Made by a program: the position numbers and the translations under genes. A stretch of 7,505 nucleotides of DNA, taken from the IMG/VR virus record IMGVR_UViG_2706794493_000022; one strand, 5' to 3'. The notes beneath the pieces were generated by a model. The model did not search any database. It was not told where the DNA came from and saw nothing but the letters and a program-made list of their open reading frames with translations. Numbering within the stretch: position 1 is the stretch's first letter; each line of letters starts with the position of its first letter. This document shows, one piece after another, positions 1,547 through 7,163 of this stretch. The DNA is from a virus (taxonomy: Duplodnaviria; Heunggongvirae; Uroviricota; Caudoviricetes).

Positions 1547-2638
1547 TCACCCCCTGAATCCCGGCGGAATTTCGGTATCCGGTTCAGAAATATGATTCAC
1601 ACAACGCTGGTTGTTCGTGCCGCTTACCGGGAGCAACCAGGGGTTTTCAAAATTCCGGTCCGGCCCAAAAAACGTCGTCGCTCGCTGAACAAATTCCGTT
1701 CCCGCTTTCCCGGTCGCCGCCAGGTATCTCGCGTAACGCCTCACACCATCCAGCATGGTCTCTGGTGGCACCCCCTCGCGCAATCTGGCCTTCCAGGCAC
1801 TGAAAGCGGATTTCTTCGGGTTTGCCCCAGCACGCAACGGGTATTCCCGCCAGACCTGTTCGAACACATCCGGATAATCCACTCGTCCCACAGACTGCCC
1901 GGTGCTTTCCGGGACTACCCGATCGGCTTCCCGCTGAATGGCGGAATCGGCTTCAGGCTGCTGCAGTTGGTGTGATTGCTCCGACCCTGCGGTCATCACC
2001 TGCTGCACAGCGCCCGAATCGGCTTCCGGTGTCGTGCCTGCTGGCTGACCAGGATTGACGGTCTGAACATCCCCTGCCTGGTTCGTGGTGTTTTTTTTGC
2101 CATGAACCATAGTGTTTTTGTCCTGTTCCTGTTCTTTCTCCTGCTCCTGTTCCTGTTCTTGGCTTCGAAGCCCCTTAAAAGCCCCTTCGAAGCCCCTTAC
2201 CGAATTTCGGCTATTATTCCGCCTCACATCCAGATGGAAATCCGTTTTATATCTGTCGTAAAACACTGACAGAAAAGCGTTTTCAGGTAATGATGCATAC
2301 TCATTCCTGACACCTGCACAACGGTTATCGCCAGGCTTCAACGTTTCCCCAACCTGCCAGGCTGCCATTTCATGGACCCAGACCATCTCTGCATCATGGT
2401 CATAGCTACAAAAACCAGCTTCAACAGCCCTTTTAAGCCCCTTTGAAGCCCCTTCCAGACCAAGCCCGGTTTCATGAGCAAGGTATAAAACTGGCAGGTA
2501 ATACAAACCCAGCATATTTGCGTGAGGGGATGTCATCAGGTAAAAAGCAACAACTTGCGCTTCTGCACCCGCCTTTCTAAGTTCTCTCCCCGTTTCTCCC
2601 AGCCAGAATCGCGGAGAAACTTTTGCGTAATCACGCAT
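1547..2638 (-). CDS. Phage replication initiation protein (O-like replisome organiser) with Q/E-rich linker
   Basis: Long ORF immediately upstream of and coupled to the DnaC-like gene. Preferred start is ATG at 2638 (MRDYAKVSPRFWLG..., SD GAGGT 4 nt upstream) giving 363 aa; the ORF track's 2749 ATG has no SD. Contains a QEQEQEQEKEQEQ linker and internal direct DNA repeats. Family assignment is by gene context and architecture, not by a search. Confidence 0.75.
   Translation of the reverse strand: MRDYAKVSPRFWLGETGRELRKAGAEAQVVAFYLMTSPHANMLGLYYLPVLYLAHETGLGLEGASKGLKRAVEAGFCSYDHDAEMVWVHEMAAWQVGETLKPGDNRCAGVRNEYASLPENAFLSVFYDRYKTDFHLDVRRNNSRNSVRGFEGAFKGLRSQEQEQEQEKEQEQDKNTMVHGKKNTTNQAGDVQTVNPGQPAGTTPEADSGAVQQVMTAGSEQSHQLQQPEADSAIQREADRVVPESTGQSVGRVDYPDVFEQVWREYPLRAGANPKKSAFSAWKARLREGVPPETMLDGVRRYARYLAATGKAGTEFVQRATTFFGPDRNFENPWLLPVSGTNNQRCVNHISEPDTEIPPGFRG
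2121..2158. repeat. Imperfect hexanucleotide tandem repeat (TCCTGT-like units) encoding the Q/E-rich linker of the replication protein
   Basis: Seen directly: tcctgt tcctgt tctttc tcctgc tcctgt tcctgt; reverse complement encodes QEQEQEQEKEQEQ in frame. Confidence 0.8.
2167..2199. repeat. Three direct 11-bp repeats (consensus GAAGCCCCTT + 1), iteron-like, inside the replication gene
   Basis: gaagcccctta / aaagccccttc / gaagcccctta at 2167, 2178 and 2189, an exact 11-bp phase; flanked by the CTTCGAAG palindrome. Confidence 0.45.
2423..2455. repeat. Second cluster of three 11-bp direct repeats (AAGCCCCTT-like), iteron-like
   Basis: aacagcccttt / taagccccttt / gaagccccttc at 2423, 2434 and 2445, same 11-bp phase and core as the 2167-2199 cluster, about 256 bp away. 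Confidence 0.4.
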
Positions 2639-2716: not shown

Positions 2717-3172
2717 ATGTATTTTTTGAAAAGCCTTTATCAGGCTCATGTATTAAATGTTGCAGCAACAAACCGCTGGTGTAACAGCCCCGAAATGCTC
2801 CCGGATTACAGAGCCTGGCTGCGCGCCGAAACATACCTTCGTCTCGACATATTGATTAGCGAACTTCAAAAAGAGACTGCATCCATTCATAACCTTCAGG
2901 GTATCGACGCTGTTCGCATTCTGGTATCGCGCCATAGTGCTCTCTCAATAATTGAAGTGCGTCATCTCTCTTTTTCTGAACTGATTTTCTTGCTTCAACC
3001 AGCTCTGGAATCAGCGAATATCCCGCCGGAAGTGATCCAATACCCACCTCATGTTGACGAGCAGTTACAAGATGTGCCATACAACCAGCGTGCTGGATTG
3101 ACTCCCTGCTCAGAGGCTGAATGGGATCACTCTCTGCTGAAGAAATACCAAGATTTGTATAATCCTCAATAA
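2717..3172 (+). CDS. Hypothetical 151-aa protein, antisense to the lytic operon (alternative to the minus-strand ORF 2856-3365)
   Basis: ORF with strong SD GAGGAGG 6 nt before ATG 2717 and a perfect TATAAT about 38 nt upstream. Overlaps the minus-strand ORF on the opposite strand, so both are unlikely to be real. Confidence 0.4.
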   Translation: MYFLKSLYQAHVLNVAATNRWCNSPEMLPDYRAWLRAETYLRLDILISELQKETASIHNLQGIDAVRILVSRHSALSIIEVRHLSFSELIFLLQPALESANIPPEVIQYPPHVDEQLQDVPYNQRAGLTPCSEAEWDHSLLKKYQDLYNPQ

Positions 3173-3365
3173 GCCCGGCACACGCTTCTGCATCAGCCAG
3201 CTTTATTCTGGTTTCCTTGCGCTGTTCTCTGGCTGACAAACGCCAGAGCAGCGCATTAGCTTTATGTATCAACCACTCTGCCAGCTCCACATCAGATAAA
3301 CCGCCACGCCAGATGTGCGGACTGTTTTCGTAAACGCTCAGTGTCAATTTTTTGTCATTACTCAT
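2856..3365 (-). CDS. Hypothetical 169-aa protein between the ydaT-like and replication genes (alternative to the plus-strand ORF 2717-3172)
   Basis: ATG at 3365 lies 13 nt after the ydaT-like stop, fitting the operon; SD is weak (GGGT). The ORF track's 3416 start is a GTG with no SD. Helical, acidic-looking sequence. Confidence 0.45.
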   Translation of the reverse strand: MSNDKKLTLSVYENSPHIWRGGLSDVELAEWLIHKANALLWRLSAREQRKETRIKLADAEACAGLIEDYTNLGISSAESDPIQPLSRESIQHAGCMAHLVTARQHEVGIGSLPAGYSLIPELVEARKSVQKKRDDALQLLREHYGAIPECEQRRYPEGYEWMQSLFEVR

Positions 3366-4168: not shown

Positions 4169-4570
4169 ATGATGAGCGCCCTAGAAGTATCTATGTACAG
4201 AATCAGCAAGCTTCTTCAGGAAACTGGATGGAGCCAGGCTGAGCTTGCCCGTAGAATTGGTGTGACACAACAAACTGTTCAACAATGGGTCAGCGGTAAG
4301 GCTACACCTAAAGCCTCAAGTTTGGATAAACTGGTTGAGGTTTCAGGGCATCCATTGCATTGGTTTTTATTGCCTCCTGAAGAGTGTGAGCAAATTTTCA
4401 CCCCTGACACGATGAAAATTGGTCCTCGCCAACGCGAACTGCTCCAAGCTTTTAGTGCGTTTCCTGAGGAAGACCAAGAAAAAATGCTTCAAGAAATCAA
4501 AGACAAGAAAAAATCAATGGAAGAAACCATTGCTAGGTGGCTGGCGGCACAAAAAAGCCGCCGGGCGTGA
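4169..4570 (+). CDS. paaR: Prophage repressor / TA regulator, XRE-family HTH (DicA/PaaR-like)
   Basis: 133-aa ORF with N-terminal HTH (SQAELARRIGVTQQTVQQW) and C-terminal ELLQAFSAFPEEDQ segment resembling DicA; divergent from the Cro-like gene; directly upstream of the antitoxin/toxin pair. True start may be the internal ATG at 4193; no SD at either. Confidence 0.75.
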   Translation: MMSALEVSMYRISKLLQETGWSQAELARRIGVTQQTVQQWVSGKATPKASSLDKLVEVSGHPLHWFLLPPEECEQIFTPDTMKIGPRQRELLQAFSAFPEEDQEKMLQEIKDKKKSMEETIARWLAAQKSRRA

Positions 4571-4597: not shown

Positions 4598-4789
4598 ATG
4601 GGTACAGCCCTTTCTCCGATAGTTTCAGAATTCGAAACTACCGAACAAGAAAACAGTTACAACGAATGGTTGCGCACTAAAGTAACGTCAAGCCTTGCAG
4701 ACACTCGCCCCGCAATTCCACATGACGAGGTAATGGCTGAAATGGAAAATCTTATTGCTCAAATTGCTGTAACTAACAAGAGCGAGTAA
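4598..4789 (+). CDS. paaA: Small antitoxin of a three-gene ParE-type TA module (PaaA-like, 63 aa)
   Basis: 63-aa acidic ORF; SD GAGGAG 7 nt upstream of ATG 4598; stop overlaps the ParE start (TAATG). The 63-aa size matches PaaA2 of E. coli O157:H7 as recalled. Confidence 0.7.
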   Translation: MGTALSPIVSEFETTEQENSYNEWLRTKVTSSLADTRPAIPHDEVMAEMENLIAQIAVTNKSE

Positions 4790-5076
4790 TGTTACCCATT
4801 TTATGGCTACCGTCTGCTCGCGATGATTTGCGCCAGATCATAACTTACATCGCCAAGGAGAACCCACCGGCAGCACGTAGACTAAAAATACGCATTGAAA
4901 CATCGGTATTACCTCTATCTGAGCATCCGTACTTATATCCACCAAGCGAACGGGTTTCTGGATTGAGAGAGATCGTGACCCACCCTAACTACATAATCCT
5001 GTACAGAGTAGCTGCTTCAAGCATTGAGATTGTAAGCGTGACACATTCTCGGCGACAATTTCCCTTCTCTATCTGA
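4789..5076 (+). CDS. parE: ParE/RelE-superfamily toxin (ParE-like, 95 aa)
   Basis: Typical ParE pattern (W...A..DL..I..YIA..NP.AA ... GLREI ... YIILYRV ... IEIVSVTHSRR); translationally coupled to the antitoxin by a 1-nt overlap. Confidence 0.85.
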   Translation: MLPILWLPSARDDLRQIITYIAKENPPAARRLKIRIETSVLPLSEHPYLYPPSERVSGLREIVTHPNYIILYRVAASSIEIVSVTHSRRQFPFSI

Positions 5077-5353: not shown

Positions 5354-5509
5354 ATGGATACTATCGATCTTGGCAACAACGAATCTCTGGTGTACGGCGT
5401 GTTTCCCAACCAGGACGGTACATTCACCGCGATGACGTATACCAAAAGCAAAACGTTTAAAACCGAAAATGGTGCCCGTCGCTGGCTGGAAAGAAACTCA
5501 GGTGAGTGA
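5354..5509 (+). CDS. ydfA: Small YdfA/YdaF-like protein (DUF1391-type, 51 aa)
   Basis: ATG at 5354 with SD GAGGT 4 nt upstream (the ORF track's 5315 start is TTG with no SD); 51-aa product MDTIDLGNNESLVYG...; first gene after the promoter, as in the Qin dicB operon. Confidence 0.7.
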   Translation: MDTIDLGNNESLVYGVFPNQDGTFTAMTYTKSKTFKTENGARRWLERNSGE

Positions 5510-5510
5510 T

Positions 5511-5639
5511 ATGGATTTCGACACAATCATGGAAAAGGCTTACGAAGAATACTTCGAAGGCCTTGCCGAAGGCGAGGAAGCTCTCAGCTTCAGTGAGTTT
5601 AAACAGGCGCTTTCCAGTTCGGCAAAATCTAACGACTAA
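5511..5639 (+). CDS. ydfB: Small acidic YdfB/YdaG-like protein (42 aa)
   Basis: Not in the ORF track (under 60 aa); found by reading: ATG 5511 one nt after the upstream stop, SD AGGTGA 5 nt upstream; MDFDTIMEKAYEEYFEGLAEGEEALSFSEFKQALSSSAKSND. Confidence 0.65.
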   Translation: MDFDTIMEKAYEEYFEGLAEGEEALSFSEFKQALSSSAKSND

Positions 5640-6747: not shown

Positions 6748-6805
6748 TTTCTGGTGACGTTTGGCGGTATCAGTTTTACTCCGTGACTGCTCTGCCGCCC
6801 TTTTT
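6748..6805 (+). ncRNA. dicF: DicF small RNA (ftsZ-targeting, Hfq-dependent) with intrinsic terminator
   Basis: tttctggtgacgtttggcggtatcagttttactccgtgactgctctgccgccc followed by TTTTT matches DicF of the Qin prophage as recalled; GGCGG...CCGCC stem plus U-tail; sits between the ydfB-like and dicB genes as in Qin. Confidence 0.85.
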
Positions 6806-6974: not shown

Positions 6975-7163
6975 ATGGAAACGTTATTACCAAACGTTAA
7001 TACGTCTGAAGGTTGTTTTGAAATTGGTGTCACTATCAGTAACCCTGTATTTACTGAAGATGCCATTAACAAGAGAAAACACGAACGGGAGCTATTAAAT
7101 AAAATATGCATTCTTTCAATGCTGGCCCGTTTACGTCCGATACAAAAAGGATGCTGGCAATGA
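6975..7163 (+). CDS. dicB: DicB cell-division inhibitor (62 aa)
   Basis: METLLPNVNTSEGCFEIGVTISNPVFTEDAINKRK...LNKICI.SMLARLR matches recalled DicB; SD GAGGA 7 nt upstream of ATG 6975 (the ORF track's 6870 start is upstream junk). Confidence 0.9.
   Translation: METLLPNVNTSEGCFEIGVTISNPVFTEDAINKRKHERELLNKICILSMLARLRPIQKGCWQ

Follow-up and report, generated by a model that had tools for sequence, protein, structure and literature searches.

The window analysed in this work, i.e., the whole stretch of 7,505 nucleotides recorded in IMG/VR as IMGVR_UViG_2706794493_000022, is the early region of a lambdoid prophage of Escherichia coli O157:H7. On its minus strand lies a gene for a replication initiator (1547-2638) which contains two clusters of a short direct repeat, AAGGGGCTT in the sense of the gene. 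Comparison of this gene with its homologs, together with structural modelling of its product, suggests that these clusters (a core of 9 base pairs (bp) repeated with an 11-bp period) are iterons bound by the N-terminal winged helix encoded by the same gene, and that they form an origin of replication of the prophage inside its own initiator gene. We give this reading a probability of roughly 75%.

The 9-mer AAGCCCCTT, whose sense-strand reading is AAGGGGCTT, is present in five exact copies on the plus strand, at positions 2168, 2179, 2190, 2435 and 2446, and no other copy exists in the 7.5-kb window. Shuffled versions of the window contained 0.07 ± 0.26 copies, and none of 200 shuffles reached five. 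The copies are grouped in two clusters and inside each of them the spacing is exactly 11 bp, so that the five exact 9-mers are short direct repeats in helical phase, as looked for in an iteron-type origin. Cluster B (2168-2198; gene positions 441, 452 and 463) consists of three exact copies. Cluster A (2424-2454; gene positions 185 and 196) is composed of two exact copies, 2435-2443 and 2446-2454, and a degenerate one (2424-2432) that either matches at six of nine positions if the phase is kept or lacks one G. An earlier note on this DNA had described two clusters of three 11-bp direct repeats; the phasing and the triple at 2168-2198 are correct, but the second cluster holds only two exact copies besides the degenerate one. 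The clusters are about 256 bp apart, with 225 bp between them, cluster A being on the N-terminal side. They do not flank the hexanucleotide repeat of the gene, as had been proposed: both are located on its N-terminal side, cluster B adjoining it and cluster A 225 bp further away. The hexanucleotide repeat itself (2121-2160, sense CAGGAR, detected with Tandem Repeats Finder) was found to encode a QEQEQE linker, in agreement with the note, and the DNA repeats do give rise to protein repeats, EGASKGL from cluster A and EGAFKGL from cluster B.

A half-iteron (AAGCC; AAGCCAAGA in the sense strand, 2157-2165) is situated one 11-bp step past the last copy of cluster B, with which it forms the palindrome GGCTTCGAAGCC (2161-2172). 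The sequence AAGCCA[AG] is found exactly 11 nucleotides past the last cluster-B copy in 47 of 65 loci, whichever way cluster B is oriented. When about 430 sites are taken together, their information content corresponds to a 9-bp core with two uninformative spacer positions, and the distances between clusters A and B across loci (232, 244, 255-256 and 267 bp) increase by one repeat unit at a time.

Homologs of the N-terminal half of the initiator were gathered from annotated phages, from viral contigs and from a set of one genome per species. The latter comprises 79 loci, mostly of Gamma- and Betaproteobacteria with a G+C content ranging from 35 to 71%, and in 69 of them the N-terminal domain is intact. 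The phased pair of cluster A, at gene positions 185 and 196, is kept in 59 of these 69 loci, and a phased cluster B at gene positions of about 430-465 is kept in 61. The earlier note had reasoned that homologs keeping the protein while losing the repeats would speak against an origin; the opposite was found. The orientation of cluster B with respect to the gene is variable: 47 loci have it inverted, six have the direct orientation of the window, and in 13 both orientations occur within the cluster. Inverted clusters encode EAPSKPL or a similar peptide instead of EGASKGL, but at the DNA level motif, 11-bp phase and location are unchanged.

Synonymous positions inside the repeats are nearly frozen. 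In a codon alignment of 75 sequences, residues E62, G63, A64, K66, G67 and L68 are encoded by GAA, GGG, GCT, AAG, GGG and CTT, respectively, in at least 91% of them. The codon entropy at E62-L68 is 0-0.54 bits; elsewhere in the same domain, conserved residues with four- to sixfold codon degeneracy (Gly, Ala, Leu, Pro, Thr and Val) show 1.6-2.4 bits. Identical codons are used inside the 9-mers by GC-rich Burkholderiales and by AT-rich Proteus and Acinetobacter. Enterobacterial copies that are almost identical to each other have constant 9-mers and differ in the 2-nucleotide spacers, in the flanks and in the number of hexamer units. Since the phased clusters are kept, synonymous sites are frozen, inversion is tolerated and spacers vary around constant 9-mers, an explanation based on a protein motif is excluded: the repeats are selected as DNA.

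The number and location of the repeats also differ in some relatives. In a contig from a Burkholderiales metagenome-assembled genome (locus L145), an initiator copy with intact N-terminal domain is preceded about 1.2 kb upstream by a second, truncated one (positions 1-420), in which the clusters are expanded to five repeats (A) and four repeats (B) and the run of hexamers is long; cluster A can evidently expand in 11-bp units. Six Acinetobacter loci (L004, L104, L113, L114, L116 and L134) possess an extra pair of 9-mers 15-40 bp upstream of the initiator start codon, which may serve in autoregulation or as a third cluster of the origin. Such upstream copies are absent from most loci.

The N-terminal domain (2210-2638 on the minus strand; residues 1-143), which would be the iteron-binding domain, has no match in Pfam (E up to 10), in NCBIfam, or in a sequence search of the PDB with the family profile. 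An AlphaFold2 model built from 41 sequences has a predicted local distance difference test score (pLDDT) above 90 over approximately residues 11-140. The order of its elements is α1 (25-36), β1 (45-47), α2 (50-57), α3 (60-73), β2 (77-80) and β3 (85-88), which is that of a canonical winged helix. Both this topology (α1-β1-α2-α3-β2-wing-β3) and the structural matches to known proteins of the class identify the predicted fold as a winged helix-turn-helix. The structural neighbours of the model are DNA-binding winged helix-turn-helix proteins, RepA_N proteins and replisome organisers, the viral neighbours being annotated as the latter. Residues 144-173 are disordered in the model.

The two clusters occupy different parts of this predicted structure. 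Cluster A (codons 62-68) falls within the folded domain and would encode the first half of helix α3 (codons 60-73; 2420-2461, minus strand), the helix usually responsible for recognition in this fold. Cluster B and the hexamer repeat would encode the disordered linker that follows the domain, and the tolerance to inversion of cluster B and to variation of the linker would be explained because the encoded segment is disordered. The earlier comparison with phage lambda, whose origin was said to lie in linker-coding DNA, applies in this respect to cluster B only, as the exact copies at 2435-2454 are inside the folded domain.

The repeats change together with the N-terminal domain. Distant homologs (L163-L168; 29-35% identity) do not have AAGGGGCTT; instead, GAAAGGGTTTC or GAAACCCTTTC is found at both cluster positions, and a hexamer repeat comes next here as well. 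In its C-terminal half (1549-2118), the initiator gene of the window is 91-92% identical at the nucleotide level to its counterparts in Tritos, Evi and similar phages; beyond 2118, where the hexamer repeat borders, the similarity is lost. The Escherichia phage Tritos (L289), with 92% nucleotide identity in the C-terminal half, has a different N-terminal domain, which gives a weak, sub-threshold match to Phage_rep_org_N. In its positions 2100-2441 there are two clusters 260 bp apart, each with four copies of CGTGAC, followed by a 12-nucleotide repeat encoding a DKDT linker; that is, the layout of the window with other repeats. The C-terminal halves and the downstream genes differ among the loci that keep AAGGGGCTT, the latter coding for a DnaC-like loader, a primase-helicase or other proteins, so that the N-terminal domain is the only constant partner of the repeats. 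The repeats are inherited together with this domain. Conservation as DNA and co-variation with the DNA-binding domain of the initiator are the second property looked for in an iteron origin. The idea of an origin within the gene, put forward in the earlier note, is supported by homolog conservation, frozen synonymous sites, inversion and domain co-variation. With a predicted winged helix of the replisome-organiser class and a DnaC-like loader encoded next to it, the lambda analogy holds at the architectural level.

A hexamer-periodic run follows cluster B in 61 of the 69 loci with an intact domain and marks the mosaic junction between N- and C-terminal halves. The number of units and the encoded peptides vary; synonymous positions change freely (CAA/CAG, GAA/GAG) and different lineages have QE, KE, KD, PA, TI or SN dipeptides. 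A role of this run at the DNA level was considered. Because synonymous sites and dipeptides vary, a slippage-prone flexible linker is the simpler reading.

The same 9-mer is also found in a second protein family. Viral contigs were scanned for AAGGGGCTTNNAAGGGGCTT and 80 matching loci were examined. The N-terminal domain of the initiator is encoded in 47 of them, the match being in or beside that gene in 44 of these 47. About 25 of the other loci, from AT-rich phages, encode instead proteins of the 'MAKRFTDTEKWKKPFIRGLQ...' type, the 'MAKRFTDTEKW...' family. In this second family, which is large (2,145 database proteins, all unnamed), one AAGGGGCTT pair with 11-bp phase is located near codons 14-24. 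A further pair, in most cases of inverted orientation, lies where the N-terminal domain ends and leads into a (GATAAR)n repeat, which is translated as a KDKDKD linker. Examples within L170-L248 are L212 (2317-2336), L172 (6003-6022) and L175 (315-334 and 640-659). The structure model of the second family is poor (pLDDT 60), too poor for a fold search, and its order of helices and strands is the same as that of the winged helix, so that a distant relatedness to the initiator family is possible.

According to the mechanism that we propose, several initiator molecules would occupy both clusters, A within the DNA that codes for the domain and B 256 bp away, where the domain ends. The bound initiators would shape the DNA between the clusters into a nucleoprotein complex, a nearby stretch of low stability would melt, and the variable C-terminal half of the protein, which here ends in a DnaT-like tail, would recruit the phage DnaC-like loader carrying host DnaB. 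The repeats themselves, their selection as DNA and their inheritance with the N-terminal domain are observed, whereas we infer the binding of the domain to the iterons, the role of the region as an origin, the melting site and the loading of the helicase.

The least stable duplex segment of the region (2238-2277, GC 0.35), a weak candidate for an unwinding region, is situated between the clusters, just upstream of cluster B. Its nearest-neighbour stability has a z value of +2.05 in the window, and the mean z at gene positions 330-400 is about +1.0 in 63 loci. This stretch coincides with the AT-rich codons of a conserved helix rich in F, Y, K and D; a further modest dip at the hexamer repeat is equally confounded by coding. 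We do not trust 2238-2277 as an unwinding element because the stability profile follows AT-rich codons. Directly downstream of the hexamer repeat in gene sense, at the start of the shared C-terminal segment, there is an imperfect inverted repeat of 10-12 bp around an A8/T8 tract (2079-2109). Some E. coli relatives have perfectly palindromic arms, Tritos possesses the element too, and it resembles the inverted repeat beside the AT-rich tract of ori-lambda.

Several observations weigh against an in-gene iteron origin. The duplex-stability profile of the 63 loci reveals no clear AT-rich unwinding element that is conserved, and no DnaA box was found near the repeats. Profile comparison detected no sequence similarity between the initiator family and the second family with the identical 9-mer, beyond the peptide that the repeats encode. 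An identical 9-mer would be unexpected if specificity resided only in the N-terminal domain of the initiator. The second family is chiefly what the simple model leaves partly unexplained, and it gives a low probability to another reader of the 9-mer. The literature searched yielded no assay of binding or replication for any member of the initiator family. Finally, in strain PV15-279 an IS66-family insertion sequence (ISEc8; L001, 24-2887), to the left of the window, disrupts a DUF977 gene downstream of the replication genes. Because of this interruption, seen in one genome and just outside the window, the O157 prophage copy may be defective.

The alternative that survives best, although we regard it as unlikely, is that the repeats are bound by the initiator but have a regulatory function (autoregulation, a roadblock to transcription, or control of copy number by pairing of sites), the true origin being elsewhere in the phage. 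Additional repeats are a common means of autoregulation and copy control among plasmid initiators, the additional pair of the Acinetobacter relatives is in an operator-like place just upstream of the start codon, and no unambiguous unwinding element was found. However, upstream copies are missing from most loci, the window has no copy outside the two clusters, and a position inside the gene, at the boundary between the domains for specificity and recruitment, fits the proven origins of lambda, SPP1 and pSK41.

It is somewhat less probable still that repeats and hexamers are mainly junction sequences that promote the shuffling of N- and C-terminal halves between phage initiator genes. The end of nucleotide similarity at the hexamer edge, the diversity of C-terminal halves and downstream genes, and the slippage of hexamer units would agree with such a role. 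It leaves unexplained the location of cluster A inside the domain, the 11-bp phasing, the frozen synonymous sites, the tolerance to inversion, and the change of repeat sequence with the N-terminal domain; moreover, it is compatible with origin function and hence no true alternative. Equally improbable in our opinion is that the N-terminal domain does not read the 9-mers and that they are the site of a different protein, of the phage or a conserved one of the host. The second family, with the same phased pairs and a hexamer repeat in proteins of no detectable similarity, speaks for this idea. Nevertheless, within the initiator family the repeat changes with the N-terminal domain, neither neighbouring genes nor C-terminal halves are conserved across the loci that keep the 9-mer, and the winged-helix order of the low-confidence model leaves room for a distant relatedness of the two families. 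We know of no host factor with this 9-mer as its site. That the DNA repeats are a by-product of a needed peptide (EGASKGL / EGAFKGL) is hardly credible: the two peptides are alike and E62, G63, K66 and G67 are invariant in close homologs, but synonymous sites are frozen over a G+C range of 35-71%, inverted clusters encode a different peptide, and cluster B is in a predicted disordered segment.

A broader idea, which we put forward only tentatively and consider rather doubtful, is that of an undescribed origin design common to several initiator families without mutual sequence similarity: the initiator family of the window, the 'MAKRFTDTEKW' family with its identical 9-mer, and the Tritos type with CGTGAC. 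Such a design, if it exists, would have two short-repeat clusters separated by about 250-300 bp, the first in the region coding for the DNA-binding domain and the second at its end, directly followed by a slippage-prone hexanucleotide repeat encoding a dipeptide linker. In that case the initiator of the window's family would read the DNA that encodes its own reading head, cluster A coding for the presumed recognition helix, and a change in the site would also alter the reader; the hexamer repeat might also act at the DNA level, for instance in unwinding or helicase loading.

With respect to the genetic context, the minus-strand genes of the window are ordered, leftwards, as a Cro/YdaS-like gene, a YdaT-like gene, the initiator gene, a gene for a DnaC-like AAA+ helicase loader (794-1540) and a DUF1627 gene. 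The repeat-bearing region (2100-2760) is 100% identical to many O157 chromosomes and is present in 477 of 5,426 complete E. coli genomes. The initiator has 363 amino acids from its conserved start and its open frame extends to 2749. RefSeq places the initial methionine at 2638 and the homolog and PHROG alignments begin at the same residue, so the gene probably starts at 2638 and not at the first ATG of the open reading frame (ORF), at 2749, and the 37 upstream codons are probably untranslated. The protein matches phrog_1701 and phrog_3729 as a replication protein, phrog_1701 being labelled as a DnaD-like helicase loader. RefSeq labels it as a hypothetical protein, and its relatives carry the labels 'DNA-binding protein' or 'primosomal protein I'. 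It has no Pfam match at E up to 10, including Phage_rep_O, Phage_rep_org_N, DnaB_2 and RepA_N. Scans for promoters and terminators gave results at chance level.

The loader, encoded by the next gene of the operon, matches Pfam IstB_IS21 (E 4e-19), NCBIfam PRK12377 (NF009043; 509 bits, above the cutoff of 389) and phrog_50, a group of DnaC-like helicase loaders. With the DnaC equivalog model it scores 299 bits, below the cutoff of 357. The last 24 or so residues of the initiator (1550-1621, minus strand) form a DnaT-like tail, VN.ISEPD..IPPGFRG, which aligns with positions 156-179 of the 179 of the DnaT model NCBIfam NF002770 (E 0.002); the score of 17.7 bits, against a cutoff of 201, does not make the initiator a full-length DnaT. 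The tail also matches the DnaT chains 6aep, 2ru8 and 9zbt of the PDB (E 0.007-0.03). Given this tail and the downstream DnaC-like gene, and in analogy to the host primosome and to lambda O-P, recruitment of the loader-helicase complex may be the task of the C-terminal half.

Other elements of the window were also recorded. The prophage possesses a Qin-like dic region with DicF, dicB, DUF1391 (YdfA-like) and YdfB (6749-6800, 6975-7163 and 5354-5639, all on the plus strand), in which the small RNA DicF (6749-6800; Rfam, 76.7 bits) is full-length and upstream of dicB. Two long ORFs on opposite strands overlap and each has a match in a different library: that at 2717-3172 (plus), which is annotated in RefSeq, matches NCBIfam NF033230 'ECs1072 family' (105.7 bits, above cutoff), and that at 2856-3365 (minus) matches phrog_8304 over its full length (E 4e-120). 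A toxin-antitoxin pair of the RelB/RelE type, annotated in RefSeq, is located at 4598-5076 (plus) beside a repressor-like helix-turn-helix gene (4169-4570).

The initiator family has been found in E. coli O157 prophages, in Shiga toxin (Stx) phages of Shigella and E. coli (75/02, POCJ13), in phages of Klebsiella, Acinetobacter and Ralstonia, and in prophages of many Beta- and Gammaproteobacteria. A search of the literature on iterons with prophage initiators and on the 'Eru' replication types of Stx phages yielded no description of this initiator module or of its repeats, and a full-text search for the 9-mer only retrieved unrelated papers. The present analysis offers a specific and testable assignment of an origin and of the sites of its initiator for a large family that has neither a Pfam model nor a solved structure and for which the searched literature contained no published study. 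A known origin and specificity determinant would help to predict replication compatibility and module exchange among Stx-related phages, to build phage-derived replicons, and to annotate initiator genes correctly. The frozen synonymous sites are in addition a clear case of a DNA signal laid over a coding sequence.

Several known systems share features with that of the window. The likeness to host DnaT is limited to the last 24 or so residues of the initiator, the rest of the protein being unrelated. The host dnaT and dnaC genes are adjacent, and the DnaT-like tail followed by the DnaC-like gene mirrors this arrangement.

The Rep protein of plasmid pSK41, a member of RepA_N, binds Rep boxes located centrally within rep; the origin encodes a linker, and the C-terminal domain is host-specific (PMC5703833). 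However, this is a plasmid of Firmicutes and not a phage of Proteobacteria, the initiator of the window has no RepA_N match in Pfam, and pSK41 Rep binds DnaG, whereas the initiator is DnaT-like at its C-terminal end and is encoded beside a DnaC-like loader. The sites of gp38, the replisome organiser of phage SPP1, are direct repeats of oriL inside its own gene 38; a helicase loader and a helicase of the DnaB type then take over (PMC6316719). The SPP1 repeats are unrelated in sequence to those of the window, and the initiator does not match Phage_rep_org_N or DnaB_2, the resemblance being at the fold level and through phrog_1701.

Another parallel in layout is phage lambda, in which iterons and an AT-rich tract lie in the middle of gene O, i.e., an origin inside the initiator gene, between an N-terminal half that is origin-specific and a C-terminal half that recruits the helicase-loading protein (PMC7466680). 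Lambda O and its origin, as well as the Stx-phage variants, also share with the window the presence of multiple phased initiator repeats and the exchange of N-terminal half and repeats as a unit. On the other hand, lambda O has no sequence relationship to the initiator of the window. Lambda has four to six contiguous imperfect palindromes of 19 bp followed by the AT-rich tract, whereas the window has 9-bp cores with an 11-bp period in two clusters, one of them inside domain-coding DNA, and a DnaC-like loader takes the place of lambda P. The system of the window is architecturally the same as the arrangement of lambda, SPP1 and pSK41, but by sequence it belongs to none of these families.

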